From Escherichia phage vB_EcoM_CRJP21, in sequence record OQ708376.1: a stretch of 64,000 nt of DNA. The stretch is one strand, 5' to 3'. The translations under genes were made by a program, and so were the position numbers. Position 1 is the stretch's first letter; the number at the start of each line of letters is the position of its first letter. Positions 4,723 to 59,500 of the stretch are shown here, piece after piece. Under the pieces are notes generated by a model. The model had not been told where the DNA came from, made no database searches, and saw nothing but the letters and a program-made list of their open reading frames with translations.

Positions 4723-7452
4723 ATGTCATCAAAACGAATTATAGGAAGTGCCGAGATCCTTGGGAACTTGGCAATTGGACAAAGGTACGCTATGCGTACT
4801 TTTAATGGAACCTCACCGAATGCCAATACTGGAATTGTTCAATATCCAATATATAAGCGTTCAGAAGTTCAAAGTATTTTAGATATGTTGCCTATATCAC
4901 GTGTAGGAGAAATGGATTACTTGCCATTAAACGTAAGTGGGTCGTATGAAGGTGCTACACCTATGTCAAGTGACCAAGTAGTTCAGCCAACAATTATTGA
5001 AGATGATGGAACCGCCGTTGTTCTGCGTAGCGGAACCAATGGTAGTACTAAAGGTTTTTATTATTCATTTATACGAGAACTCCGAAATATAACTATGATT
5101 TCACAAGAAAGTGTTATTTCCACCAATTCAATGTATAAACCTTCAATTATGAGTAGTACTGAAAATATTAAGTATTTTATTGGCTCTAATGGTTATGAGA
5201 TGCTTGGATGTTTAAGTACAGAAGATAATTATATTTTCACTTTAACAAATGGTACATTCAACGAAATTTCACATATTCACGCTAAAGTTCCAAGTACATC
5301 ATTTGGAAATGATATGCCATTATACGTTCATATTGTAGGTTCTAAAGTATATATTTGGTGTAAAGATAAAAGTGTTTCTAATTTAGGATTAGCACTTTCA
5401 ATTTATACAGTAGAGCTAAGTGATGTGAAAGCAAGCTCAATGGCATCATTAACAAAAGTTACTGGATTATCAGGGCAAACTGTTCGAAATACAAGTTATT
5501 CTGCATCTAATAACATAAGAGTGTTTGATAGATTATATAGTGTTGGTACTAGCTCGGATTCATTATTCGAAGTTACATCACCAGTCTCACGTGTAGAATT
5601 TTCGGATTATACAGACTTTAATATACAAGCAAACGTTAGTACTGATTTATCCAAAATACGTGTAACTTTATACCCAACACATAGAATGGTTACACCTTTA
5701 TATATTTCAACAGTGTATGGTACTGGTATCAGTTTTGTTTATAATATAAACTCAAAATCTATGTCACTAGATGGTTCTGCTCGTGCTCCTGCGACAGTTT
5801 CATATAATAATGGCTTCCAAGTTACAAACCCATTTGAAATAGATATGGTAAACTTTACTGGAACAACAGCTACCGGAGTTTTAGGTAATGCTGGTGGGTT
5901 ATGTCAAACAAAAGATGGTCTTGTATTTGCATCTAAATTCAGATGGAGTTCTACTGAATTTTATGGTTTACAAAGATATAAAGTTAATGGTACACCATTT
6001 GATTCATGGGTAGCCAGTACTAGATCCGCAAGTAACGTTATAAATACAAACGTTTTACCAGTTTTTGGTAGTGCTGTTGGTGCAAACCTATTAGGTGTAC
6101 GTTTCATCGATAATAGAAAAATATTATTAGCATGTTCTGGTACGTATGATGATGTAACATATAATTATAATAATACTGTTTTTTCTGAAATAGGCCCACA
6201 ACCAACATATCAATATAACTCAGTTCAACATAATACTACATTAAATGGTTTTGCACCACAATCTAATCGTAAACAAATAGGTGATGATTTTACATACACT
6301 GCTATGATTTCTCTTGTTGATACCGATGGTAGTGTTAGATGTTATGGAACATCATTCATTGAAGGTGTATATAAAACAAGTGGTGGATTATTAAACCCAG
6401 ATACTTTAGAATTTGATGAAACATATACAATAGAACCAACGGTATTAGAATCATTAAAACAAGATATTTTTGCTAATCTAGGAAACTCTGGCATTGTTGG
6501 TACACTATCTGGACAAATTGTATTATATTATGTACCTGATAATACTTTTTCTAAATCCATTGCAGTAGTTTCAGCATATAATCTTAACAATAACCAAGGT
6601 TATGCAATTTATGCCGAAGTTGATGTTGTATTATCTGGATCTAACATAACTTCAGCTACATTGGTAAGTACTAGATATGAGACACTTAGTTCTGTTACAG
6701 GAATTATTACTGAAGCATATATGAAACGTTGTACTGGTCTAACAGTTGCTAAATATTCAGGATTTGGTTATATTGGTGTTGATGCAGTTCATCAATTTTC
6801 ACAACCAGGTAATGCACAATTTAAGATGATGATAGCTAAAACAGTAAATGGTGTCATAACATCAAATCGTTTTTTATCATCTAGTTACATCCAACTCGGT
6901 GCAGCATATCAACATGGTGTTATTCCTGGTGTTGGTTTTGGATATTACAATTTTCAAGATTCTGACTATCAAACCAAATCTGTATTCAGCGTTTTTGGTA
7001 CAACATCTGCTGAAATGGATGGTTTAATTAGCGGAAATGGTAGCGTTAAAGAAAAGATTGTGGTAGTATCACAAGACGTTGCACAAGGATTCTCAGTGTA
7101 CTTTACACGTGAAGTTCCGGTATTTTTAGGTGGAATTTTCGACAGACTACCTATACAAAGTGTAGATTTAAGTACTGTAAAAAATAATCCAGCTAATACT
7201 ACGTTCTATTTGTATATACAAATGAACAGGAATACTAAGAAAGCTTCATATGTTATTAGTACTGAAACTATTGATGAATCTTTAACTAGCACTTACATTG
7301 GTAAGATAGTTACTGGAACTTCAGGAATTACTTCGATTGATACTGAAAAAGTGACTCGTTTTTTGACATATCGCCCAAGTACAACGAAACGTGGTTCAGC
7401 GATACCTGCCAGTACTGGTGTACCGTCTGGGTCAGGCACACGTTGGAAATAA
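4723..7452 (+). CDS. large paralog C (909 aa) of the same family
   Basis: ATG at 4723 after aaggaaaag RBS (track ORF begins 4633); shared N- and C-terminal modules, ends GSAIPASTGVPSGSGTRWK. Confidence 0.6.
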   Translation: MSSKRIIGSAEILGNLAIGQRYAMRTFNGTSPNANTGIVQYPIYKRSEVQSILDMLPISRVGEMDYLPLNVSGSYEGATPMSSDQVVQPTIIEDDGTAVVLRSGTNGSTKGFYYSFIRELRNITMISQESVISTNSMYKPSIMSSTENIKYFIGSNGYEMLGCLSTEDNYIFTLTNGTFNEISHIHAKVPSTSFGNDMPLYVHIVGSKVYIWCKDKSVSNLGLALSIYTVELSDVKASSMASLTKVTGLSGQTVRNTSYSASNNIRVFDRLYSVGTSSDSLFEVTSPVSRVEFSDYTDFNIQANVSTDLSKIRVTLYPTHRMVTPLYISTVYGTGISFVYNINSKSMSLDGSARAPATVSYNNGFQVTNPFEIDMVNFTGTTATGVLGNAGGLCQTKDGLVFASKFRWSSTEFYGLQRYKVNGTPFDSWVASTRSASNVINTNVLPVFGSAVGANLLGVRFIDNRKILLACSGTYDDVTYNYNNTVFSEIGPQPTYQYNSVQHNTTLNGFAPQSNRKQIGDDFTYTAMISLVDTDGSVRCYGTSFIEGVYKTSGGLLNPDTLEFDETYTIEPTVLESLKQDIFANLGNSGIVGTLSGQIVLYYVPDNTFSKSIAVVSAYNLNNNQGYAIYAEVDVVLSGSNITSATLVSTRYETLSSVTGIITEAYMKRCTGLTVAKYSGFGYIGVDAVHQFSQPGNAQFKMMIAKTVNGVITSNRFLSSSYIQLGAAYQHGVIPGVGFGYYNFQDSDYQTKSVFSVFGTTSAEMDGLISGNGSVKEKIVVVSQDVAQGFSVYFTREVPVFLGGIFDRLPIQSVDLSTVKNNPANTTFYLYIQMNRNTKKASYVISTETIDESLTSTYIGKIVTGTSGITSIDTEKVTRFLTYRPSTTKRGSAIPASTGVPSGSGTRWK

Positions 7453-9122: not shown

Positions 9123-9524
9123 ATGACTACAGTTGATGATATCTATAGCACTATACGCAATATGAGTACAGATAGAAAAGTATTTGGCGATAAAGAAAAA
9201 TCTAAGTGTTATGGTATTGATTCTTTTGATATAATTTCTTATGAGTACAATACAAGTGGAAATAGTTCACTGAATATCGTCTGTCCTCGTGATCCAGAAA
9301 ATAATTTTATGTATGTTGAAATTAATAATGATGGAATGTTTTTTACAAAAGTTTTAAAAGGTGGAATTAATTACGAACCTATTGAATGTATGAATGAAGA
9401 AACTTTCTTTCAAGAAGATACAATTATCAATTTAGGTTTTAGTTTTGATGATTATAAAACATTAGAACATGACTTTAATCGTTATTATAATGGTTTCTTA
9501 AAGGAGTTAACAATTTATCTATGA
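9123..9524 (+). CDS. hypothetical protein
   Basis: 133-aa ORF tightly packed between neighbours. Confidence 0.5.
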   Translation: MTTVDDIYSTIRNMSTDRKVFGDKEKSKCYGIDSFDIISYEYNTSGNSSLNIVCPRDPENNFMYVEINNDGMFFTKVLKGGINYEPIECMNEETFFQEDTIINLGFSFDDYKTLEHDFNRYYNGFLKELTIYL

Positions 9525-10753
9525 ATAACCAATATATTGAACAAACAATAGTGAAACACTTGGCTGGGTCACAAGCCTACGGAACCAGTACACCTGAAAG
9601 TGATACTGATTATCGTGGTATTTTTCTTGCTAATAAAGAATTTATTCTTACACCCTTCTATAAGGTCAAAGAGGTAGCTGATAAAAGCGAAGAAGATACT
9701 AAATTCTATGAGTTGAATCAGTATTTAAAATTATACACTGAAGCTAACCCTAATATTCTTGAATCACTTTGGGTTGAACCTGAACACATTGTTGAAAGTA
9801 CTGAAATTTATGACTATCTTCGTTCATTTAACCAAAAACTTCTTAGTTCCAAGATTGCATTTTCATACACTGGATATGCATATAATCAGATTAAGCGTAT
9901 GACAAATCATCACGGTTGGATGGATAAAGAGCGTATTGCTGAAAAACGATTAAATGAGATTTTAGAAGAACACCCAGTCGATGAGGTTCTTGCGTGGATG
10001 TATGATTCATTTCCACAATATCTTGTTGAACGTTTAGATACATCGAACTTACATCCATTTAATGCTAAAAAGATTGATTTTGAAAAATATATGCGTGATA
10101 CGTCATTGCAGTTAGTTTCGAAAAATCCATTAAAGCAATATCATTTTGTAAGATTAGTGCATAACTACACTACTGATAAAATTCTAGATCGTGATTTCAA
10201 TTTATTGAATTTTAATAATGGCTATGAACTAATTCATTACGGAGAAAACATTTTTGCGATTATTAAAAATCCGAATGAAAGTACTATCAATGGTGATGGT
10301 TCATTGCGTTATTTTTCTAAAGAGCGTAGTACTGAAGAGTTGAAAACCAAACCAGAACTGATTGTCAAATTTAACGAAAAAGAATATCAGGAAAATAGTG
10401 AGAATAGGAAAAGTTATCATAAATGGAAAGAAAATCGTAATGCCAAACGTGCTATTTTAGAATCACAGCACGGATACGATTGTAAACATGCTATGCACAC
10501 AATCCGACTTTTGAATAGTGCAGAAGAAGCATTACAAAGTGGTATTATTCAAGTTAAACGTCCTGATGCACAAATGCTGATGGATATTCGCAATGGTAAG
10601 TGGAAATATGAAGAAGTATTAGAATACTTTGATGATAAAGTAAAATATATTCGTGATGTTCTATATAAGAAATCTGTACTTCCTAAAAAACCAAACATCA
10701 AATTAGCATCAAAAATTATCATTGATATTAGAGAAATGCAATGGTATAAGTAA
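9521..10753 (+). CDS. Pol-beta-superfamily nucleotidyltransferase (predicted)
   Basis: N-terminal hG[GS]-x(9-13)-[DE]h[DE]h signature LAGSQAYGTSTPESDTDYRGIF; ATGA start overlap. Confidence 0.5.
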   Translation: MNNQYIEQTIVKHLAGSQAYGTSTPESDTDYRGIFLANKEFILTPFYKVKEVADKSEEDTKFYELNQYLKLYTEANPNILESLWVEPEHIVESTEIYDYLRSFNQKLLSSKIAFSYTGYAYNQIKRMTNHHGWMDKERIAEKRLNEILEEHPVDEVLAWMYDSFPQYLVERLDTSNLHPFNAKKIDFEKYMRDTSLQLVSKNPLKQYHFVRLVHNYTTDKILDRDFNLLNFNNGYELIHYGENIFAIIKNPNESTINGDGSLRYFSKERSTEELKTKPELIVKFNEKEYQENSENRKSYHKWKENRNAKRAILESQHGYDCKHAMHTIRLLNSAEEALQSGIIQVKRPDAQMLMDIRNGKWKYEEVLEYFDDKVKYIRDVLYKKSVLPKKPNIKLASKIIIDIREMQWYK

Positions 10754-10921
10754 CATATACAAGTGTAATGGTACTAAAAATGCCATTACACTCAATAAAT
10801 ACTCAATATAAATTAACACAAGGATTAAGTATGGCACAACAAATTTTCACAGATATCCACACTACCGGAGTTATTAAATTTCAAAATAATTTTTCTGGTG
10901 CTACTGGTGTAGACATTAAAA

Positions 10922-11458
10922 ATGATGGTTTTAACATTGTCAGTACTCGGATCTATTGATGGTGAAGATAGTTCTCTTAGTGATTCTGTGATTGCATCAT
11001 TCGGAACTAATAAAAACAGTTCTTTTATTATATCTGGATGGACTGGAATGACTGATTCTGAAAATAATGTTAAGATAAAAGCTAAAGCTACTAACGAGAA
11101 TCATGAAACAGAATGGGTAACATTATATGATAGTGCAAGTAATAAGTTATATAATGTATTAAGTTCTAATAATATTTTAATTAATCCACTGTCGGGCAAT
11201 GCTGTTTTTAATATTAATTTATCTGATAGAAATACTACTATTTCGATTGGTGCGGCTCCTACTGAAGTTTATTCAATTACCATCCTATTAACACAACAAA
11301 CAGGTTCAAACCTAGTTAATTGGGGTTCTAATGTTAAATGGTCATATAACAGACCAGTTGTTCTTTCTTATGAAATTGGTGAAAAAGATATTATTTCATT
11401 AGAAACATATGATAAAGGAGTTACATGGTACGGTGCATTAATTAGAGCAGGAGTATGA
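10922..11458 (+). CDS. hypothetical protein, start uncertain (possible frameshifted continuation of 10831-10959)
   Basis: 178-aa ORF overlapping a 42-aa ORF in another frame. Confidence 0.35.
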   Translation: MMVLTLSVLGSIDGEDSSLSDSVIASFGTNKNSSFIISGWTGMTDSENNVKIKAKATNENHETEWVTLYDSASNKLYNVLSSNNILINPLSGNAVFNINLSDRNTTISIGAAPTEVYSITILLTQQTGSNLVNWGSNVKWSYNRPVVLSYEIGEKDIISLETYDKGVTWYGALIRAGV

Positions 11459-11459
11459 T

Positions 11460-14249
11460 ATGTTAAACAATAATATTGATAATATTGTACAACTTCTTTA
11501 TGGGCATCACAAATTTATTGAAAGAAATACTGGTGATACAATAGACCCAACAGTACAACATTATGTGGTGAATAATCAGGGTGTTTTGGCGAACAACCGT
11601 CATTTTATTAACTATTCTGCAATGGAAGGTCAACCAAACGGTGACGGGACAACAGAAGGTCAAAGTCTATTAATTTTGGGATACATTTATGCGTATCTGG
11701 CAACAAATGATCCAATGTTTTTAGATAAAGCCAAATGGTACTGGGATGCATATCATCAGTACTTTTATGCTGGACGTGAATTACCAGACCCACCAACTCC
11801 ACTTCAATGTAACTGGATAGTTAATGCCAAAGAACCGATTTTGGCTAACTGGCCTTTAGCTGATGATGGATGGCCTACACATGGTGGTTTCAAGGGTGTA
11901 GAATTTACATTTACAAATGGACAATGTAAAATACCACATGGTGCACCTTATTATGGTCAGTTCTTGGATAAAGTAACATTCGCATTCAAAGGTGCTTTAG
12001 CATGGAACCAAATAAATGCGTCAGTAAAAGCATTACTACCAGATGGTAGTGTTGATTGGGATACCCCTGGTGATCAATATGATGTTGACTGGATTATTGA
12101 TTTCATGGGTAGAAAAATCGACTGGGATGGTAATATTTTAGCAGAAGGTTTTGACGAATCTGAAAAAGGAACGGTTCAATTAAAAAATACAACAATTAAT
12201 GGTGTATATAAATTAAATTTTGCTAATCGTCAACCAGTAGAATATGGTGGTGTGATAATTCAACGAAATGAAATGCAACACAACCGACCACTTCATGTTC
12301 CAATTGATTTGGAATTTGCGGATAATGCATCAGATGCAGAATTGTGGTTTAGTGATGCTTCTTATTTGTTATATAAAATAACAAAAGAAAGAAAACATTA
12401 TTTGGGTTGGAAATGTTCATTACTCACATGCTATGCTTATGGTGATATCGACTCCAGAGATAAATTTTTCAGACAAAGTACAATTGTAACCACACCATTC
12501 ACTGATGGTATTTCCTATGAATATTTTTATCCAAGTGATGCTATCGCTAAGTTTGGTAGAAATTCTTTAGGATATATTACTATCAGGCAAGACCAAAGTG
12601 CACAAAGTACAATGGAACAACAAGCTATTTGGTTCAGGGTCAATGCTGATTCTAAATTACTTGTAGATTATGGTGGTGTATGTGATGATGGTAAGCCGTT
12701 ATCATTTAAACCAGTACTGGAATTGTCTAAAACAAAAAATGATCATGATGTAGTAAGATATCGTTGTGGATTACCAGAAAGTAAAGACCAAAATATCACA
12801 CATTCATTAACACCTTTAAGTGCATTTGTTAGAGAAAAGAAAGCAGATGGTTCCCCTTATATAATTGCTGATAGTAGAATAGTTGTTCCTTATGGTGCAG
12901 CTACGTCCGAAATGATATATAGTACTGATATATTAGTTACACGCCGAGATACCATTAATCAGTTAGTTTGTGGTGAAGATGATGGTGCTGTTATTGGATT
13001 TTGGCTATTAGCAACAAATAAGTCTGAAGTTAAATCTTTTACATATCGTTCATATGAAGATGATTACAATATAAGAATTGTAGATGATAATGGTTGGAGA
13101 TGGTGGTGGATGATTCCTGCAACACACGGGGAATGGACTACAATCACACTAAGTTCCGATACATTACGTTTATCTGGGTATCAGCCAAATCATCCAAGTT
13201 CTGACCCAAGACCAGATGCACCAGTATATAGTGAGCTAGAAGATATTACTATTTTACCTGATACAACCCCAGTAGATGGTGTTGCTGCAATAATTGATTG
13301 GTATTGTATTAATGACATTCCAGAATTATATACGGATGCTGACGGTGATGACTATACTATGACATTTTCAATAACAATTGCAGGTGAATCACCATATACT
13401 GCACAGTTAGGGGATTGTGTAATCAAAGATTATTTGTTAAACTCATTGCATTACACACCAGGAACAATACCATTTTCTAACATCACTGACCCGTATGCGA
13501 ACCAGTACTCAGGTTGGCGTGGTTTACCGTATCCAGGTTATCAATATCCAGTGATATATTGTTTTAAAGACCAGCCAGTAGATAACACACGCTTAGGAAA
13601 CATGTTAAGCTTTATGAAAGATTCCCAAACATGGTTTACTCAACAATTCGGTACTGTTGGTCCGTGTGCACAAGCATATGTTTGGAACCGCTGGGATAAC
13701 TTAAAATATGGTGAACCAGATACATTTACTATGCTACATTGGGGTGATCAAGCATGGAGTGGGTATGAACCACGTGCGTTCTTTGGGGCTGCCAGAGCAT
13801 GGCAAGAACTCGCAGAGAGAGGAATTGAACCACCAGCAGATCTTGTTGAATTTTGTGAGAATTGGATTCACTTTTTAATTCAATTTCAAAAAGATAATGA
13901 TGGTCGTTCACCAACAATCTTCAATAAAGATGGCACAGTTGAAGGTCCAGATTGGGACTTTACAGGTCATATGTGTGGGTTGTGGTTAGCTGGGGCTTGT
14001 GCTGCTGGATTGGCTGGATGTAAAATAGAAGGTCTAACAACACTCGCTGATAACTTAGTTCTCGAACTTCAAAAGAATTATGTTATTGTAAATCCAGGTT
14101 CCCCAATGAATGGTTCATGGAGTCCAGCAGTTAGAGAAGGTACTGATAATGGTATGTTTTTTGGTTTCTGGGCAGGTGAGATTATGCGTGGATTGGGGTT
14201 ATACTCAATGTACCGTTTAAACACACCAAATCGTTTCCGTGATTTATAA
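11460..14249 (+). CDS. large hypothetical protein (929 aa)
   Basis: long uninterrupted ORF, Trp/Tyr-rich (WYWDAY, WRWWWM); no motif I can assign. Confidence 0.6.
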   Translation: MLNNNIDNIVQLLYGHHKFIERNTGDTIDPTVQHYVVNNQGVLANNRHFINYSAMEGQPNGDGTTEGQSLLILGYIYAYLATNDPMFLDKAKWYWDAYHQYFYAGRELPDPPTPLQCNWIVNAKEPILANWPLADDGWPTHGGFKGVEFTFTNGQCKIPHGAPYYGQFLDKVTFAFKGALAWNQINASVKALLPDGSVDWDTPGDQYDVDWIIDFMGRKIDWDGNILAEGFDESEKGTVQLKNTTINGVYKLNFANRQPVEYGGVIIQRNEMQHNRPLHVPIDLEFADNASDAELWFSDASYLLYKITKERKHYLGWKCSLLTCYAYGDIDSRDKFFRQSTIVTTPFTDGISYEYFYPSDAIAKFGRNSLGYITIRQDQSAQSTMEQQAIWFRVNADSKLLVDYGGVCDDGKPLSFKPVLELSKTKNDHDVVRYRCGLPESKDQNITHSLTPLSAFVREKKADGSPYIIADSRIVVPYGAATSEMIYSTDILVTRRDTINQLVCGEDDGAVIGFWLLATNKSEVKSFTYRSYEDDYNIRIVDDNGWRWWWMIPATHGEWTTITLSSDTLRLSGYQPNHPSSDPRPDAPVYSELEDITILPDTTPVDGVAAIIDWYCINDIPELYTDADGDDYTMTFSITIAGESPYTAQLGDCVIKDYLLNSLHYTPGTIPFSNITDPYANQYSGWRGLPYPGYQYPVIYCFKDQPVDNTRLGNMLSFMKDSQTWFTQQFGTVGPCAQAYVWNRWDNLKYGEPDTFTMLHWGDQAWSGYEPRAFFGAARAWQELAERGIEPPADLVEFCENWIHFLIQFQKDNDGRSPTIFNKDGTVEGPDWDFTGHMCGLWLAGACAAGLAGCKIEGLTTLADNLVLELQKNYVIVNPGSPMNGSWSPAVREGTDNGMFFGFWAGEIMRGLGLYSMYRLNTPNRFRDL

Positions 14250-14250
14250 C

Positions 14251-14279
14251 TTGACATAGAAAAAGTAATTATGTATAAT
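14251..14279 (+). promoter_or_regulatory. sigma70-type early promoter
   Basis: TTGACA, 17-nt spacer, TATAAT. Confidence 0.7.
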
Positions 14280-14280
14280 T

Positions 14281-14311
14281 AGAGAACTTCATATGGAGTT
14301 CTCTTTTTTTA
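14281..14311 (+). terminator. intrinsic terminator hairpin immediately downstream of the promoter
   Basis: agagaact-8 nt loop-agttctct plus 7 T. Confidence 0.6.
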
Positions 14312-14323
14312 TAAGGTGATAAA

Positions 14324-14743
14324 ATGTTAAATGAACGTATTAAAAATGCACTACATGTATTGAATCAAGAAGTCAATTCTATTCATAAAAGTACTGACCG
14401 TTATAAAGTAATGCATGAAATCAAACAAGAATTGGAATCTATTAATAAGGGAGAGTGGTGGTATCTTCAGCCCGAATATCAAACTCGTGAATTAAACGAT
14501 GTTGAAAAAGAAATTGTCAAATTCATCACTACTCGTTATTGTGATACATCAGAGAATGATGTATCAGCGAACTTCAATCTTACTAAATTGGAAGTCGAAG
14601 AAAAATTCCATTTTGATTGGCTTGATTGGATTGAAATGGTAATGGAACTAGAAGAAAAATTCAATGTTGAAGTTGATGAAAAGTTCGAGAATAATGAAAC
14701 TAAGCTGTATGAACTAGTAGAACATATTCAAAAAATGTTGTAA
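14324..14743 (+). CDS. ACP-like protein lacking the phosphopantetheine-attachment serine
   Basis: C-terminal DWLDWIEMVMELEEKFNVEVDEKF resembles ACP helix II [16 protein letters not shown] with Trp in place of Ser. Confidence 0.4.
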   Translation: MLNERIKNALHVLNQEVNSIHKSTDRYKVMHEIKQELESINKGEWWYLQPEYQTRELNDVEKEIVKFITTRYCDTSENDVSANFNLTKLEVEEKFHFDWLDWIEMVMELEEKFNVEVDEKFENNETKLYELVEHIQKML

Positions 14744-14796: not shown

Positions 14797-15171
14797 ATGA
14801 GTATGTTAGAAATAATTGTTTCAAAAATTCTTATTCCATTTTGGAAACCAATTTCTTTTGTATTATTAATTGGCGGTTCAGCTTATGCTGGTTGGGAAGC
14901 TAATACTTATTACAGTGGATATCAACAAAGCATAGAGCAACAAATAGCTAAAAAAGTTGATACCGCCTTGGATAAAATGCAACAAGAAAATGCAAAAAAT
15001 TACCTTGAAACTAAAAAAATCATGGAAGATAATGCTAAAGTTATTGAAACAAAGGTTCCTTTTATTGTAGAACGTGAAGTTTATAAGAATGTATGTTTAG
15101 ATGAAGATGGTGTAAAAGTACTGAATGAACTAAAACAAAATTCTCAAGCTGCGAGGAATAAATTCAAATGA
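14797..15171 (+). CDS. i-spanin candidate (inner-membrane spanin)
   Basis: N-terminal TM segment then charged helical region; ATGA-coupled to a downstream lipoprotein ORF. Confidence 0.5.
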   Translation: MSMLEIIVSKILIPFWKPISFVLLIGGSAYAGWEANTYYSGYQQSIEQQIAKKVDTALDKMQQENAKNYLETKKIMEDNAKVIETKVPFIVEREVYKNVCLDEDGVKVLNELKQNSQAARNKFK

Positions 15172-15476
15172 AAAAATTATTAGTTCCGTTTATTTCTTTT
15201 TTAATTATAAGTGGATGTGCAGAACAAGTAAAACTACAATCCCCTACACCAATTAAACAAGAAATTCTGTTAGAAAGATGTGATGATGATACACCTCTAC
15301 CACAAAAAATTATGATTGACAAAAATGGTTTTAAAGGTTATGATGGTGCAGAAATTCTTAAAGTACTTACTCGTTGGGATGCAGTATACAACGAATGTGC
15401 TTTAAAACATGATGCATTAATTAAAACTATTCGTGATTTACAAGGTAAAGATATTAAAATCAATATCAAGGAATAA
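15168..15476 (+). CDS. o-spanin candidate (outer-membrane lipoprotein)
   Basis: signal peptide with lipobox LIISGC. Confidence 0.5.
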   Translation: MKKLLVPFISFLIISGCAEQVKLQSPTPIKQEILLERCDDDTPLPQKIMIDKNGFKGYDGAEILKVLTRWDAVYNECALKHDALIKTIRDLQGKDIKINIKE

Positions 15477-15477
15477 A

Positions 15478-16089
15478 ATGAACAAATATCATGTTTACTA
15501 TACGACCAAATTATCACTTCTTGACGAATTAAATCAACGAAGTACTAAGATGAAACGCTACACTTTAAATGGTATTACTTTTCGATATTTCCCACAAAAA
15601 GTTCTTACATTTATTAAGAATCCAAAATGCGTGGCATGTGGGATTGAAGCTACTGAAGTACGCATTGAACGTTCATTATGTTCTGATCCAGTATATGGTA
15701 AACCACATTTAAATGTATATGCTGTATGTGGTCTTTATGAAGTTTTAATGACAGTTGACCATAATCATCTGGCATCTAAGGGTGGACCTGATTTAGAGTC
15801 AAACTTTAATACTATGTGCTCCAGATGTAATCAACTACGTTCGAATAAAACTGAAACAGTTGATGAGTTTCTTGAGAAAGTTAAAGGTCGTAATCTTCTC
15901 CAAGAACATATGAATAATTTCTTTAATGTACAAAAAAAGAAAAATAACATTGACAAGTCGAAACTACTAGAAGAACGTAGGTTACGTCAAGAATTATGGG
16001 AAACTGATCATCTATGGCATGTTCGAGAGTTTGGTCGTCATATGAAAGCATTGAAAAAAGAACAGAAGAAATTGAATAAACATGATTGA
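15478..16089 (+). CDS. HNH endonuclease
   Basis: CVACG ... VDHNHLASKGG ... CSRCN motif set; ATG at 15478 right after o-spanin stop. Confidence 0.6.
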   Translation: MNKYHVYYTTKLSLLDELNQRSTKMKRYTLNGITFRYFPQKVLTFIKNPKCVACGIEATEVRIERSLCSDPVYGKPHLNVYAVCGLYEVLMTVDHNHLASKGGPDLESNFNTMCSRCNQLRSNKTETVDEFLEKVKGRNLLQEHMNNFFNVQKKKNNIDKSKLLEERRLRQELWETDHLWHVREFGRHMKALKKEQKKLNKHD

Positions 16090-36950: not shown

Positions 36951-39058
<2,108 letters not shown>

Positions 39059-53513: not shown

Positions 53514-56500
53514 TTAAGCAGTACGTTGTGCAATAAACATATCTGTTACTGGACTCACCCCGTCATAAATGACTTGGTAGATAGTTACAGAGTTTGCAGT
53601 TTTGTTTAGAGTTCCATCAACAACCGCATAAGTACCATCAGTAGTAAAGTTTCTATTACCTGTTGCATCTTGTTTTACATAAATGTATACTGAAGATGCT
53701 TTACCACCACCGATTAGACCAGTGATTGGTGCTAGAGTTGTATCTTGATCTAGAGTGATAAAGTATACGTTGCTAGTACCGTCTGGGGTCCAAGTGCCAG
53801 TTGGTGCAATAACAGAAGAAGTTACTTGATTAGGAATAACATCATATTTTTTAGTAGTTACTGTTGTAGTAGTCAAGTCAGCATTAGTAGTTGTTAATTG
53901 ACCAGTTACAGTTACATCTTTATCAAATACTGCATTTTCTTTGAAAGAAGATGTTGCATTGACAGTTAATGTATCAGCAGCCGCGTCACCTAAAACAACA
54001 CTACCATTTGCAGTCATTAATCCAGTAACAGTTAAAGTACCACCGATTGTTGCTGCTCCAGTAACAGATGCACTAGCAAGTGTTGCTGCACCAGAAGTAG
54101 TAATAGTAGTTACTGAAGTTGCTGCTAGGGTTGCAGTACCTGTTGCAGAAATATCACCACCAACAGTTAGGTTACCAGAAGTAATCCCAACGGTTCCAGT
54201 AATGTTAGCACCACTTGACATTGTTACTGCACCACCAAATGAACCAGTAGTAGTTACTTCAAGGGTGTTCCCTTTTAGCAGACCAGTTGCAGTAATACTT
54301 GTACCTGCGGTAATGCTAGTACCAGCAGCAACACTGTTGGTTGCAGTTAATGATTTAACAGCTACATCAGAGTTTGCTTGGTTTAGTGTTGCGTTTAGAA
54401 CACCAGTTACTGTAAAGTTACCGTTGTTAACTACGTTACCATTGATTGTTAAGTTGTTGTTTTGTGAACCAACATCACCAATAGTTGCTGATTTAGAAAT
54501 CAACTCTGCACCAGAAGTAATATTACCCGCTGCACTAATAGTGTCAGCCGCAACAACTGCATAAGGTTCGATTGTTTGACCACTAACATCAATATCAGCG
54601 TTGATACCACCATCTACACGCAAGGAACCAGCAATGTAAGTGTTAGGGAAAATCTGAACTGTTTCTGGTTGTTCACCGATCTTAGTACCAATAATAACAT
54701 TAGAACCAGTTTTCACTGCACCAGAAGTTGTTAGTGAACCTAAAGTTGCTGCACCAGTTACACCTAGTGTACCACCAATTGTTGCATTGTTAGTAACTGC
54801 TAATGCAGTTCCTTCACCATTAAGAGTGATTGATGGAGCAGTTGCTGCACCAGTTACACCTAATGTACCACCAATTGTTGCATTACCATCTGAATGTAGT
54901 GTGGTTGCAACAGAAAGACTGTTTGCAACTACATCAGTACTAGCTAAATCCAATGCACCTGGCGTTAATGTACCAGTAATGTTAACATTATTACCAAAGG
55001 TTGCTGCACCAGTTACATCTATTGTAGTACTAAATGTACCAGAAGTTGCAGATACCGCACCTGAATCTAGTGAACCGACAGTTGCCTTTCCAGTTACACC
55101 TAGTGTACCACCAATTGTTGCATTGTTAGTAACTGCTAATGCAGTTCCTTCACCATTAAGAGCGATTGATGGAGCAGTTGCTGCACCAGTTACACCTAGT
55201 GTACCACCGATTGTTGCATTGCCGTTTGAATGTAGGGTTGTTGCAACAGAAAGACTGTTAGCATCTACATCAGTACTAGATAAATCCAATGCACCTGGGG
55301 TTAACGTGCCAGTAATATTAACATTGTTACCAAATGTTGCTGCACCTGTTACACCTAGTGTAGTACTAAATGTACCAGAAGTTGCAGATATTGCACCTGA
55401 ATCTAGTGAACCGACTGTTGCCTTTCCAGTTACATCTAAAGTACCACCAACTGTTCCATTTGTGGTTACTGCCAATGTACCAGTACTTAATTCTTGTGCA
55501 GTTACCTTACCGGATGCAGTAACAGTTGAAGTGGAAACACCACCAGTTAGAGTACTTGCACCAGTAACACTTAATGTGGTTGCAGCAGTTACGCTATTCA
55601 CGTTAAGATCAGCACCGGATAGGTCCAAACCACCTTCAGGAATAAATGCACCCTTAACAGTTAGTTTTTGTACAGTACTGTCACCAGTTACATCTAGAGT
55701 AGATGCTGTAAGGCCACCATTCATACTAGCTGCACCAGTAACACCAAGGGTAGTAGTTACAGTTGCACTATTAAGGGTAGAGTCACCAGAAATATTAGCA
55801 CTTGGTGCGGTAATAGTTCCTGCATCAACTTGAATACCACCATCAACTACTTGAATACCACCAGTATTAACTGTTAGTTTACCACCAGTTGACAATGTGT
55901 TTGAAACTGTAGTTGCACCAGTTAACGTTGTGGTTCCAGTAACACCCAAGTTACCAGAAATAGATGGACTACCTGTAATGTTACCTGTAGTTAGAATCAA
56001 ATCAGTACCTACAGTGGTAGAGCCAGTACTTTCTAGTGTTACACCGACGATGTTTGCAGAACTTAGGTCAATAGAACCATCAACAGTTAAGTTACCTTGA
56101 ACGGTTGCATCACCTAGAGAAGTTAATGTCTTCACAGACACATCAGTTGTGCTAAGATCAATAACACCCGCAGTTAGTGTTCCAGATACTGCTAAATTAC
56201 CAGTAATCGCGGTATTTTTAGTAATGGATACATTTTCTGCCGCTGAAGTAATAGAACCAACAGTAAGTACACCACCAACAGTTGCGTTATTAGTTACATT
56301 TAGAGCAGTTCCAACACCAGATAGTGTTGCTGACCCACCAGTAATTGCACCTGAGATTGAAGCTGTTGCTGCTGAAACATCACCAGAAACTACTGCATTT
56401 GTTGCATTTAGAGCAGACACTGTAACTTCAGTACTTTGAACTTTAGGTAGAACGTTGATACCTTCTGCACTACTAACTGTAATAATACCAGTACTTGTTA

Positions 56501-59500
56501 GAGATTTAACAGATACATCAGAACCACTTAAATCAACTGTACCAGAAACAACAAGATCTCCACCAATATTTGCTCCAGCGGTAGTAGTAATGGATTTTGC
56601 ACTTACATCAGTTGTGCTCAAATCAATTGCACCTGGTGTTACTGTACCAGAAACTGTTAGGTCACCAGTAATAGATGTATTATTGGAAATAGATACACCA
56701 TCAACGTTACTAATTGTTGGGGTTTCTACAGAAACTGCTTTAACTTTACCTGAAGAAGTTACGTCAGCTACGGTAGATGCACCAGTAACATTCAAATTAG
56801 TAATATTTGCAGTTGTTGAACCAAGGGTTGCAATAGTTGCATCAGTACTTTGAAGTTTAGGTAGAACACTACTAATTGTAGATTCATTACTAACAATTGC
56901 ACCAGTACTAGTTAAAGATTTGACAGTAACATCAGCAGTAGTAAGATCTACTGTACCATTAACAGTTAGGTTACCACCAATAGTTGCACCAGCAGTAGTA
57001 GTAATGGATTTAGCATTAACATCAGTTGTTGCTAGATCGATAGAGCCTGGAATAACTGCACCAGTAACGGTTAGGTCACCAGTTACATTTGTATTATTGG
57101 AAATAGTGACACCACTTGCATTTGAAATGGTTGGGGTAACCAACGATGCAGTTGTAGTTTCACCAGTTACAGTTAAAGTTGACCCAACTAGAACAGATGA
57201 GCTTGAGTAAATTGTACCCAAATTAGCAGATCCGGTAACAGTTATATCATCAGCATTAACAGTAGTTGCCGTTATGGTAGTACTATTAAGTACAGGAAGT
57301 ACGTTAGCATTAACAAGGTCATTACTTTTAACAATACCAGAAGAAGTTAGTGATTTAACGTTAATGTCTGCTGCTGATAAATCAAAAGAACCTTGAACCA
57401 CAAGATCTCCACCAATATTTGCACCAGCGGTAGTAGTGATTGATTTCGCACTAACATCAGTAGTACTCAAATCAATTGTACCTGGGGTTACTGTACCAGT
57501 AACTGTTAGATTTCCAGTAATATCAACATTTTCTGTGAAGTTAGTATTACCACTAATAGTTGGTGCAGTCAGAGTTGTTGCACTAATATTAGTACCGTTA
57601 ATTGTTTGTCCACTTACAGTTCCACTCGCAGTGATAGTAGGAGCCGTTACTTCAGTAGATGCACTAATTGTTGGTGCAGATACAGAAGTTGTACCAGTAA
57701 TAGAACCAGAACTTACTGAACCAGCGGATAATGCACCAGAAAGAGTTGCAGTTGTACCAGCAATATCACCAGTAACAGTTAGTTTAGCACCCACGGTAGT
57801 GTTACCAGTACTTTCAAGGGTTGCACCTTTAATATTTGTCGCAGCAACAACTGAGTTTGGTGTTAGATCCTGACCACTTACATCAACAGTTAACCCAGTT
57901 ACGGTGCCAGTAAAATCGACATCATTAAGAATTGCTTTACCACCAACTTGTAGGAATGGTGTACTAGGGTCTTGTGTTGCGTTACCTGTAATGGTTAGGT
58001 AATCTAATTTGTTTAGGCCATTACCAGTAATACCATACGTAGAAAGTGCAGCATTACCAAAAGTTGCCGTTTTTAGAACGTTCAGTGTTGAAGGAGAAAC
58101 TAATTCTGATTGAACTTCGTTAGGTAAAATCACGGTTGGACGTTGACTTGGTGCAGTATATCCAAATCCAAGTTTTACAGCAGAATCTTGACTACTTTGG
58201 CCTAAGCTGATAGCTTTAAATGATGCAGTACTATTATACCCAGTAATATTAGAACCAAGAGTAACACCACCAACTAATGAAGTTGCACCAGTAACGTTCA
58301 AAGATGCTGCATTAATATCGTCTAATTGGAATGTTCCACCAAGAACACCAGAAATATTAATATTATTAAAATTAGCAGTTCCAGTACTTTCAATATTTGG
58401 TATAGTTGCAGTTCCGGTGACTTCAAAGTCAGCAACTTTGGTTTTTCCTTTTTGAACTTCTAATAGTGGTGTATCTGGAGCTTGTGTTTCGTTACCAGAA
58501 ACTGTTAGATAATCTAATTTGTTTAGGCCATTACCAGTAATGCCATAAGACGATAATGACGCATTACCAAAAGTTGCAGTTTTAAGAACGTTCAATGTAG
58601 AAGGAGAAACTACTTCTGATTGAACTTCATTAGGTAGAATAACTGTTGGGCGTTGACCGGGTGCAGTATATCCAAAACCTAGTTTCACTGCTGCATCTTG
58701 ACTATTTTGACCTAAGCTAATAGCTTTAAAGGTAGCAGTACTATTATACCCAGTAATATTAGAACCAAGAGTAACACCACCAACTAACGAAGTGGCCCCA
58801 GTAACGTTCAATGTTACTGCATTAATATCATCTAGTTGGAATGTTCCACCAAGAACACCAGAAATATTAATATTATTAAAATTAGCAGTTCCAGTACTTT
58901 CAATATTTGGTATAGTTGCGGTTCCTGTAACTTCAAAATCGGCAACTTTGGTTTTTCCTTTTTGAACTTCTAATAGTGGGGTGTCTGGTGATTGTGTATT
59001 GTTACCAGAAACTGTTAGATAATCTAATTTGTTTAGACCATTACCAGTAATACCATAAGAAGATAATGACGCATTACCAAAAGAAGCAGATGTCAAAACT
59101 GTTAAGTTTGCAGGTGACATTAACTCGGACTGAATTTCGTTTTGTAGAATAACAGTTGGGCGTTTACCAGGAGCAGTGTAAGGGAAGCTTAATCTGAAGG
59201 TTTGTGATTCAGAGTTAGAACCAATACGAATGTCTTTAAAAGTAGCAGTACTGTTAATACCAGTTACGTTAGCACCGAAAGTTACTGCACCTTGTTGGTT
59301 AGATGCACCAGTAACGTTCAATGTTACTGCATTTAAGTCAGATAGATTAAACTCACCACCAAGTGTACCACTAATTGTCACATCTTTAAATGTAGCAGTA
59401 CCAGTACTACTAATATCTGTTGTACTTACATTAGTAATTTCTGCGGTATTAGCAGTAATTTTATCAAATGCAGCAGTAGTCCCAACATCAGCAGTAATAT

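Follow-up and report, generated by a model that had tools for sequence, protein, structure and literature searches.

An adaptor gene split by a single base and the GH8-like virion protein encoded beside it: a putative tail cassette of Asteriusvirus jumbo coliphages

The stretch of DNA analysed here, 64,000 nucleotides of Escherichia phage vB_EcoM_CRJP21 (sequence record OQ708376.1; hereafter the window), contains three consecutive open reading frames (ORFs) of 42, 178 and 929 amino acids, the first two of which overlap in different frames. How can two such fragments be of use to a phage, and what is the large protein encoded directly behind them? The 42-residue ORF runs in frame 0 from ATG 10831 to TGA 10957-10959. 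An alternative ATG at 10768, 5' of this start, would make a 63-residue product, and position 10831 is preferred because of the homologues and an AAGGA Shine-Dalgarno sequence at 10820-10824. The 178-residue ORF runs in the +1 frame from ATG 10922 to TGA 11456-11458, overlapping the first by 38 nt, and a single base lies between its stop codon and the start of the 929-residue ORF (TGA T ATG). A preliminary description, made from the sequence alone, had placed these ORFs and had called the 929-residue product rich in aromatic residues and the 178-residue product rich in Ser, Thr and Asn. All positions were recovered when the coordinates were re-read from the sequence, and the claims of composition are borne out by rank among the 42 window ORFs of at least 150 amino acids (second for Trp, at 3.34% against a median of 0.92%, and third for Ser+Thr+Asn, at 32.6%, respectively). 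The sequence identifies the phage as an Asteriusvirus (121Q/PBECO4-like) jumbo coliphage, the DNA of the region being 96-99% identical to that of about 20 Asteriusvirus jumbo coliphages, including JP4, 121Q, PBECO4, phAPEC6, G17 and Sharanji. Against Asteriusvirus genomes that annotate these genes as tail fibre or tail protein, the identity is 98.6%. The 121Q counterparts of the three ORFs are gp507 (42 amino acids, hypothetical), gp508 ('tail fiber protein') and gp509 ('tail protein').

Alignment with related phages identifies the two small ORFs as one adaptor gene of about 208 codons that is split by a single inserted C at position 10948. The preliminary description had left the choice between a frameshift and two tiny genes; the pieces prove to be two halves of one gene, colinear with intact relatives once C10948 is skipped. 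The gene is a single intact ORF of 207-209 amino acids in four related lineages, namely phage A4 (209 amino acids) and the metagenomic Asteriusvirus-like lineages L006/P0123 (208 amino acids), L007/P0121 and L009, and P0122 is a further intact form. If frame-0 residues 1-39 are joined to the +1 frame from GGA 10949, the resulting protein aligns with the intact ones without a gap (...FNIVST|GSIDGED... against ...FNILTTGEIEGSE...). At the DNA level the split genomes read ACT-C-GGA-TCT/A-ATT where L009 reads ACT-GGC-ACC-ATT, a difference of one extra base, the C in ACT-C-GGA, at a place with no homopolymer run. When the intact A4 protein was used as a tblastn query, 20 phage records matched from residue 42 onwards only and in a single frame, and the identical break was read directly in 121Q, phAPEC6, G17, JNE01, Turkey5 and one metagenomic contig. 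JNE01, Turkey5 and the contig L010 are about 79% identical to the window in nucleotide sequence and are split at the identical place, and ACTCGGATC-AT-TGA is kept in both split clades, those of 121Q and of JNE01. When the adjacent enzyme was used for a neighbour-joining tree with a phi92-like phage as the root, the split clades came out as sisters nested among intact lineages. Their monophyly within these lineages therefore indicates one insertion event.

Measures of divergence mark the split as ancient and maintained, with both halves under purifying selection. Between the two split clades the synonymous divergence (dS) is about 1.0-1.5, with synonymous sites nearly saturated. The ratio of nonsynonymous to synonymous divergence (dN/dS) over the same distance is 0.29 for the N half in frame 0 and more than 1.5 in the other two frames, and 0.22 for the C half. 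The length of the 42-residue ORF is unchanged between the clades, and within the 121Q clade both N-half substitutions are synonymous in frame 0. The N half is also 67% identical to the N-terminus of the intact P0123/L006 protein, which is above the identity of the C half.

The C half does not appear to be translated from a start of its own. Pairing with the anti-Shine-Dalgarno sequence has an energy of -5.2 kcal/mol at ATG 10831 (within the top 5% of internal ATGs) and -6.9 kcal/mol at the start of the enzyme; for the candidate starts of the C half (ATG 10922, ATG 10925 and TTG 10937 in the window, ATG 4903 and 4963 in JNE01) it lies between -2.8 and +0.5 kcal/mol, the level of random internal ATGs. 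The +1 frame 5' of the junction has no conservation at the protein level. Without its own ribosome-binding site and with an unconserved +1 frame upstream, the C half would therefore need ribosomes that began at ATG 10831. At the break such ribosomes would meet CGG (10948-10950) in frame 0, overlapped by GGA (10949-10951) as the first +1 codon, and frame 0 ends at TGA 10957-10959. In the window ORFs of at least 150 amino acids, CGG is found in frame once among 16,038 codons and once among 537 Arg codons, and the other two frames contain the trinucleotide 50 and 99 times. The sole in-frame CGG sits in a 150-residue minus-strand ORF (37577-38029) that is doubtful as a gene. No tRNA genes were found in the window. 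The 121Q-clade phage Sharanji has tRNAs for Thr(UGU), Gly(UCC), Ser(UGA), Ser(ACU), Arg(UCU), Asn and Met, a set in which a reader for the +1 codon GGA is present and a CGG reader absent. The tRNA cluster of Sharanji (L018, 93600-100500) also includes an unusual tRNA-Ser(ACU) of 92 nt and a 90-nt tRNA called Met(CAU), long for Met, and the phage reportedly encodes a tRNA adenosine deaminase, a CCA enzyme and IF-3 as well.

It is established for the RF2 system of Curran and Yarus, as restated in PMC10454642, that A-site decoding competes with +1 shifting. This principle, together with the unused CGG and the phage tRNA-Gly(UCC), leads to the proposal of a Ty3-like +1 shift, and the probability that +1 frameshifting is the means of C-half expression is put at about 0.5. 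Ribosomes from ATG 10831 would reach ACU (Thr39) in the P site and stall at CGG, whereupon a fraction of them would take the phage-encoded Gly-tRNA(UCC) on the overlapping +1 codon GGA, a shift at ACU-CGG-A of the Ty3 kind, without P-site slippage. The product would be a 208-residue adaptor, ...FNIVST-GSIDGED..., that lines up from end to end with the protein of relatives in which the gene is unbroken. Its junction peptide would be NDGFNIVSTGSIDGEDSSLSDSVIASFGTNK if the shift precedes decoding of CGG; if the shift follows Arg, the peptides would be NDGFNIVSTR and SIDGEDSSLSDSVIASFGTNK. A fuller version of the proposal is offered more tentatively: phages of the 121Q and JNE01 types would make the adaptor only by way of an obligatory Ty3-like +1 shift at the region's sole CGG, with neither a slippery site nor a known stimulator, and its efficiency would depend on the competition between the host's scarce tRNA-Arg(CCG) and the phage tRNA-Gly(UCC), so that an accidental insertion would have been captured as a translational valve setting the number of enzyme appendages per virion.

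Several other routes between the frames were considered and either rejected or given a lower rank. A special frameshift-suppressor tRNA finds no candidate, as the window is without tRNA genes and the seven tRNAs of Sharanji have ordinary anticodons (ARAGORN). A hairpin at the site (10935-10970; 4984-5023 in JNE01, L003) has the break in its loop and the frame-0 stop in its 3' arm in both clades, and its fold has a z score of +0.2 in the window, which is not significant, and -2.6 in JNE01. It was discounted as a stimulator because its position is not conserved and its fold is not significant in the window. Transcriptional slippage would call for an A or T run, and there is none at the site; JNE01 lacks the A5 run at 10917-10921. 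For a shift at the stop codon (UAU-UGA-U) or a hop from AUC to AUU the re-pairing is poor and the preceding A-site codon, UAU, is common. The hop would also give a product one residue shorter than the intact homologues, and both are ranked below the CGG model.

Published mass spectrometry of purified virions bears on the 42- and 929-residue ORFs. In phAPEC6, the 929-residue protein (gp314c) was identified by 8 peptides with 13% coverage, and the 42-residue ORF (gp315c) by 2 tryptic peptides with 69% coverage (PMC7247149, Table 1); by our arithmetic this coverage corresponds exactly to AQQIFTDIHTTGVIK plus FQNNFSGATGVDIK, that is, 29 of 42 residues. In JP4 the 929-residue protein (JP4_243) was found by 1 peptide (PMC12648861, supplement 2). 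The proteome of JP4, with 49 proteins, many of them identified by one peptide, is too shallow to inform on the small ORFs. Peptides of the C half could not be matched in the phAPEC6 data because the 178-residue ORF is unannotated in that genome. The 929-residue protein is thus present in the virions of two close relatives, as the preliminary description had supposed when it called the protein perhaps virion-associated.

This protein has an (alpha/alpha)6 barrel, the fold of the GH8 family, which is formed by residues ~1-119, 286-344 and 691-929 and is broken by two beta-rich insertions at ~120-285 and 345-690 (about 165 and 345 residues). Two catalytic motifs of GH8 can be recognised in it. 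The proton-donor motif, T-[ST]-E-G-Q, is TTSEGQSYG in E. coli BcsZ (E55) and GTTEGQSLL in gp509, where E66 (11655-11657) is the putative catalytic acid; across 64 homologues, T64, T65, E66, G67 and Q68 each reach a conservation of at least 90%. The GH8 signature, taken as A-[ST]-D-[AG]-D-x(2)-[IM]-A, with an Asp that distorts the -1 sugar, is SASDGDVWMAW in BcsZ (D116) and NASDAELWFSD in gp509 (D292, 12333-12335); D292, E294 and W296 are invariant among the 64 homologues. The signature of gp509 deviates in that the second acid is Glu rather than Asp (D118 of BcsZ corresponds to E294) and in the tail of the motif. A Smith-Waterman alignment of the barrel parts of gp509 with BcsZ paired E55 with E66 and D116 with D292 (z score 3.35), and 3 of 300 shuffles scored as high. 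The invariant residues D746 and D334 are candidate catalytic bases. Foldseek returned GH48, which also belongs to clan GH-M, at a probability of 1.0, and no full-length structural relative of gp509 in the PDB (template-modelling (TM) score about 0.1). Its hint of beta-sandwich insertions resembling carbohydrate-binding modules (CBM22 type) came with poor TM scores and is not relied upon. The profile of 64 sequences gave only a marginal GH76 helix match among PDB sequences (E 0.038). A match to PHROG 2871, 'tail protein', covers residues 2-926 (E 0), and a database search returned 292 homologues, most of which cover 98-100% of the query at about 50% identity; they occur in prophages of Escherichia, Enterobacter, Pseudomonas, Shewanella, Gluconobacter and others, and in Stenotrophomonas phage Philippe, and a few of the 292 are fusions with the P2 baseplate protein gpI (PF09684). 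On these sequence features gp509 is probably an active glycosidase. Its substrate would most likely be a beta-linked envelope or matrix polysaccharide common to many Proteobacteria, and cleavage of this glycan would let the virion reach the cell surface. No description of a GH8 tail enzyme was found in the literature.

The gene order at many loci points to a partnership between the two proteins, and a tail-associated cassette of adaptor plus enzyme is very probable. The C half matches PHROG 32568, 'tail fiber protein' (E 8.5e-120), and its C-terminal module recurs in 1,294 representative proteins, for the most part as the C-end of a small protein and sometimes as repeats in giant ones; a profile of the module had no match in PDB or Pfam. 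In IMG/VR, 74 loci contain an enzyme homologue with enough upstream sequence. At 65 of them the enzyme homologue is preceded, at a distance of 0-56 nt, by the stop of a gene whose product ends in the gp508-type module; these partner genes encode 157-568 amino acids and their conservation is limited to the C-end. At the other 9 loci Tail_P2_I (gpI, PF09684) is fused to the enzyme in a protein of about 1,100 amino acids (E 5.5e-53). An rV5-like partner starts with the tailspike-anchoring domain Tail_spike_N (PF18668), and in the phi92-like phage PaulScherrer the adaptor-enzyme pair follows baseplate genes. The adaptor's variable N-terminus would anchor to the tail or baseplate and its conserved C-terminal module of about 100 residues would dock the enzyme, which is probably held on the virion in this way, to judge from the gene arrangement. 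Both the cassette and its gpI-fusion variant appear not to have been described as such in the searchable literature. In lambda-like sipho-type prophages of E. coli (L004/L005, 6319-10823) a 940-residue enzyme homologue and a 560-residue partner have the head genes on one side and the major tail, tape-measure and tail-tip genes on the other, an unusual position for a tail-fibre-like enzyme; the partner has the same C-terminal module and a faint hit to a tail-tube protein.

The N-terminal motif TDIHTTG of gp507 recurs in the window only at the N-terminus of a 2,129-residue tail fibre encoded on the minus strand (53514-59903). The fibre starts MYSIKTDLDITGAGTV... and the adaptor MAQQIFTDIHTTGVIKF..., and these are the only two window ORFs with [TS]D[ILVM]xx[TS]G in the first 40 residues. 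The TDIHTTG-type motif may be a shared virion-anchoring motif.

How firmly should this account of the split gene be held? The low dN/dS ratios, and an N-half identity of 67% after near-saturated dS, disfavour both an artefact and a decaying pseudogene. That the split is an error of sequencing or assembly in the window has general possibility alone to recommend it and can practically be dismissed, the extra base being shared by 20 phage records that come from many laboratories and by metagenome assemblies made independently, without a homopolymer. A decaying adaptor, made as fragments only, with an enzyme that reaches the virion otherwise or is being lost, would accord with a gene that is formally frameshifted and with a cassette that is dispensable as a whole (it is deleted in slurp01, EC22.5-2 and ECO103 4-12-1). 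This too is improbable, for the split has outlived the divergence of the two clades without further lesions, the dN/dS ratios are low in the correct frames, the 42-residue length is constant, the N half resembles the intact homologue more than the C half does, and the enzyme is tightly constrained (dN/dS 0.065 between the 121Q and JNE01 clades) and occurs in split-clade virions along with N-half peptides. The +1 shift itself has a number of points against it. There is no classical slippery P-site, ACU to CUC allowing at most one Watson-Crick and one wobble pair, no Shine-Dalgarno-like element within 20 nt 5' of the site, and no conserved downstream structure, the hairpins at the site using different 5' arms in each clade; comparable non-slippery sites usually shift only a few percent in E. 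coli. Conservation of CGG is not independent evidence, because a C before GGA makes CGG automatically, nor could CGG be mutated synonymously, because the +1 Gly would change. No trans-frame peptide was seen in the published mass spectrometry, in which the small gene is represented by N-half peptides from before the junction only and from whose search database the 178-residue ORF was absent. Lastly, both split clades hold a +1-frame ATG 5' of the junction, at different positions, from which reinitiation is possible. The missing slippery P-site and stimulator, these upstream ATGs and the open +1 frame of JNE01 make reinitiation a serious rival, which we regard as possible, if on the unlikely side. 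Ribosomes would terminate at UGA 10957-10959 and restart at an upstream +1-frame AUG (10922 or 10925 in the window, 4963 or 4903 in JNE01), making a free 42-residue peptide and a protein of about 178 residues that together form a non-covalent adaptor; the peptides expected are an N-terminal (M)MVLTLSVLGSIDGEDSSLSDSVIASFGTNK alongside a C-terminal NDGFNIVSTR-IY. The frame is open between the ATG and the junction in both clades, in two of three intact lineages +1 stops immediately precede the junction, and JNE01 keeps the +1 frame free of stops over at least 55 codons, an event of 0.8% chance. (In the JNE01 clade, L003 4903-5514 as well as L010 and L013, the open frame gives a 203-residue ORF over nearly all of the 42-residue one.) The absence of a separate Shine-Dalgarno sequence suits coupling as well as frameshifting, peptides of the 42-residue ORF are present in virions, and purifying selection on both halves is predicted here too. 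However, chance alone would put a +1-frame ATG ahead of a stop at 41% of positions in the phage's genes, the ATGs of the two clades are at different places, backward scanning of 32-50 nt would be needed, and the added leader (MMVLTLSVL against MLISRQIPSILPKL) is unconserved and hydrophobic. Moreover, NDGFNIVSTR, a good tryptic peptide that exists only if CGG is read as Arg, is not among the peptides reported for phAPEC6 although both of its neighbours are, which is weak negative evidence only. A free 4.7-kDa peptide is also unlikely to stay on a 12% gel, from which the phAPEC6 virion sample was cut (PMC7247149) and where such a peptide is poorly retained.

Similar care is needed with the enzyme. 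Pfam, including GH8 (PF01270), returned nothing at E up to 10 for the whole of gp509 or for five fragments, and hhalign of the 64-sequence profile against BcsZ gave a probability of 0.1. D243 of BcsZ aligns with D794, a position that is Lys in the family consensus, and the acidic residue of SGY-E770-PR is Gln in most homologues. Because the catalytic base cannot be assigned and hidden Markov model and profile methods miss GH8, gp509 is called GH8-like and not a GH8 member. The same observations, a GH8 relationship undetected by Pfam and hhalign and no conserved catalytic base, would be expected if the 929-residue protein were a non-catalytic glycan-binding or structural tail protein with a glycosidase-like fold, whichever way the small genes are expressed. 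An identity of about 50% across very different hosts is unusual for depolymerases of variable glycans, and (alpha/alpha)6 barrels also occur in epimerases and cyclases. Loss of catalysis is nevertheless rather unlikely: the GH8 acid and Asp motifs are conserved, in keeping with the suggestion of the preliminary description that the protein is carbohydrate-active or carbohydrate-binding, and the clear homology to a non-carbohydrate enzyme family that it had named as telling against this was not encountered. As for the attachment of gp509, that the adaptor docks the enzyme is deduced from the adjacency of their genes alone, and an AlphaFold2 model of the intact adaptor P0123 (7-sequence alignment) has a predicted local distance difference test score (pLDDT) of 49 and is unusable.

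The region 10763-14314 is a self-contained, dispensable transcription unit, the features of which are collected in Table 1.

Table 1. Features of the adaptor-enzyme region, numbered as in the window
Feature	Position	Strand	Basis or remark
Hairpin 5' of the cassette	10763..10791	+	Read from the sequence; arms covary in 11-locus alignment
Conserved motif CAATAAATACTCAATAT	10793..10809	+	11/11 aligned loci; candidate late-promoter-like element
Adaptor, N-terminal 39 codons (121Q gp507 / phAPEC6 gp315c)	10831..10947	+	Frame 0 through Thr39 (ACT 10945-10947)
Break and putative recoding site ACT CGG ATC TAT TGA	10945..10959	+	One-base gap in alignment against intact relatives
Adaptor, C-terminal 169 codons (conserved part of 121Q gp508)	10949..11458	+	+1 frame; colinear with intact homologues
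Widespread C-terminal module, last ~100 residues of the adaptor	about 11144-11455	+	
929-residue GH8-like probable glycosidase, virion-associated (121Q gp509, phAPEC6 gp314c, JP4_243)	11460..14249	+	
Sigma-70 consensus promoter, 12/12	14251-14279	+	Promoter scan
Intrinsic terminator closing the cassette	14281..14314	+	Terminator scan; also annotated in phage G17

The upstream hairpin lies between the nucleotidyltransferase stop and the cassette and has the arms GTGTAATGG and CCATTACAC around an 11-nt A-rich loop, TACTAAAAATG. Among 11 related loci that were aligned, its arms differ between lineages yet stay complementary, the loop TAAAAAT is kept, and the adjoining motif AATAAATA is conserved in all 11. 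Hairpin and motif together (10763-10809) may function as a terminator, as a processing site or as a late-promoter element. T4 late promoters have the sequence TATAAATA, and the conserved CAATAAATACTCAATAT may, as a candidate, have a late-promoter role. The motif CAATAAATA was rejected as a repeated promoter, its occurrences within the window not being above chance. In the terminator at the other end, a 10-bp stem at 14281-14304 is followed by a T run. The promoter, TTGACA-17-TATAAT, starts two bases past the enzyme stop and serves the next gene, and its transcript would begin within the terminator stem.

The cassette is missing as a whole from the three relatives already named, EC22.5-2 and ECO103 4-12-1 being judged by coverage. 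In slurp01 (L099 5030-5245) 3.4 kb are gone between the direct repeats GGCACAACAAAT (10834-10845) and CACACCAAAT (14222-14231); these are repeats of 9-10 nt, CACA(A/C)CAAAT, at codons 2-5 of the 42-residue ORF and in the last 9 codons of the 929-residue ORF, and the start codon of the former has also changed to CTG. The cassette is therefore accessory and lost as a unit. The gene 5' of it (9521-10753), for a 410-residue RlaP-family nucleotidyltransferase (PF10127, E 6.4e-16), is kept in all relatives examined. On the other side, the next gene (14324-14743, 139 amino acids) has weak similarity to acyl carrier proteins (ACPs): its hit to Pfam PP-binding_2 (E 0.0016) falls short of the cut-off, PHROG ACP families match it at E 1e-7, and phAPEC6 has it annotated as acyl carrier protein. 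It is followed by a 124-residue Rz-like i-spanin (14797-15171), which overlaps by 4 nt a 102-residue lipoprotein (15168-15476; lipobox LIISGC) that is likely the o-spanin. Neither an endolysin nor a holin gene adjoins this pair (14797-15476), and an HNH endonuclease comes after it at ~15478-16089, by homology to 121Q gp513.

By its sequence, gp509 is a new member of a tail glycosidase family that is already annotated and uncharacterised, the assignment to the GH8 clan with candidate catalytic residues being a refinement. With an identity of about 50% from Escherichia to Stenotrophomonas, Shewanella and Gluconobacter, this GH8-like family is among the most conserved tail-appendage enzymes found. 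As the family is this well conserved between hosts, its target is more likely an envelope or matrix glycan that they share than an O-antigen or capsule peculiar to a strain, and cellulose-type beta-glucans may be one candidate. If the substrate is indeed a shared glycan, the enzyme would be of interest for the way in which phages penetrate biofilms and for host-range engineering. The adaptor gene is a frameshifted structural gene that has apparently been kept functional through a long divergence, and the intact alleles of sister lineages are built-in controls. A search of the literature found no mention of the Asteriusvirus frameshift at this locus. Genome records call the 42-residue piece 'hypothetical' and give the second piece varying starts or leave it out altogether (phAPEC6), and this uneven annotation has hidden the second piece from proteomic searches. 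Should a +1 shift at a hungry CGG prove true, it would be an example from a bacterial virus of recoding that is independent of slippage, and would link the tRNA set of a jumbo phage to control of virion composition. Should reinitiation prove true, a virion protein would be seen to tolerate being cut in two.

Programmed +1 shifts are reportedly found in yeast Ty3, at GCG-AGU-U (said to have been described by Farabaugh in 1993), in E. coli prfB, at CUU-UGA-C (said to have been described by Craigen and Caskey in 1986), and in structural genes of Listeria phage PSA (reportedly from work by Zimmer in 2003). The adaptor site resembles all of these in having a slow 0-frame A-site codon, a +1 codon with a well-supplied tRNA and a product that is needed for function. 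It resembles Ty3 in that no P-site re-pairing is possible, and PSA in that a phage virion protein is concerned. Both prfB and Ty3 have a Shine-Dalgarno-like or downstream stimulator, whereas the adaptor site is without one. The proposed adaptor shift would, in addition, be obligatory instead of making two useful C-terminal variants. The frameshift is also recent, since sister lineages have intact alleles.

The closest counterpart of the cassette as a whole is in phi92-like phages, where gp140-gp141 of phi92 and bas60_0024-bas60_0025 of PaulScherrer form the same two-gene arrangement, a small protein with the same C-module followed by one of about 940-960 amino acids. Over 927 residues, bas60_0025 is 57% identical to gp509. 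The BASEL labels are 'sialidase domain protein' for bas60_0024 and 'lateral tail fiber protein with several glycosidase domains' for bas60_0025, and gp141 appears as a 'glycosidase' tail protein, after Schwarzer et al. 2012, in a table of PMC5380687. A 2026 cryo-EM study of phi92 (PMC13450770) gives gp140 as predicted fibre-like and does not place gp140 or gp141, the density of fibre II being unassigned. The phi92-like pair lies inside the baseplate and fibre module, whereas that of the window is isolated between the nucleotidyltransferase gene and the ACP-like and spanin genes; the phi92-like adaptor, of 157 amino acids, has a tailspike-type N-terminus, and the adaptor of the window has a different one and is split by a frameshift. 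Similarity of gp509 to GH8 enzymes (BcsZ, C. thermocellum CelA and C. perfringens CPF_2247, 3ren) is below detection by hidden Markov models. These enzymes are secreted or periplasmic, whereas gp509 is virion-borne and its barrel carries beta-rich insertions of ~165 and ~345 residues.

Branched tailspikes of the CBA120, G7C and K1-5-like type are likewise enzymatic receptor-binding proteins hung on the tail by small adaptor modules, and the TSP1/Gp66 N-terminal domain PF18668 is present in some proteins of the gp508-module family. However, the enzymes of those systems are trimeric beta-helix tailspikes and gp509 is a globular (alpha/alpha)6 barrel, and the putative docking module of gp508 is a different domain, with no Pfam family and no PDB relative by sequence. 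Prophage fusions with P2-type gpI (PF09684) carry the same GH8-like domain, at about 50% identity, on a baseplate wedge protein, which supports a location at the tail periphery. The link there is covalent, within one polypeptide of about 1,100 amino acids, whereas in the phage of the window it would be made by a separate adaptor.

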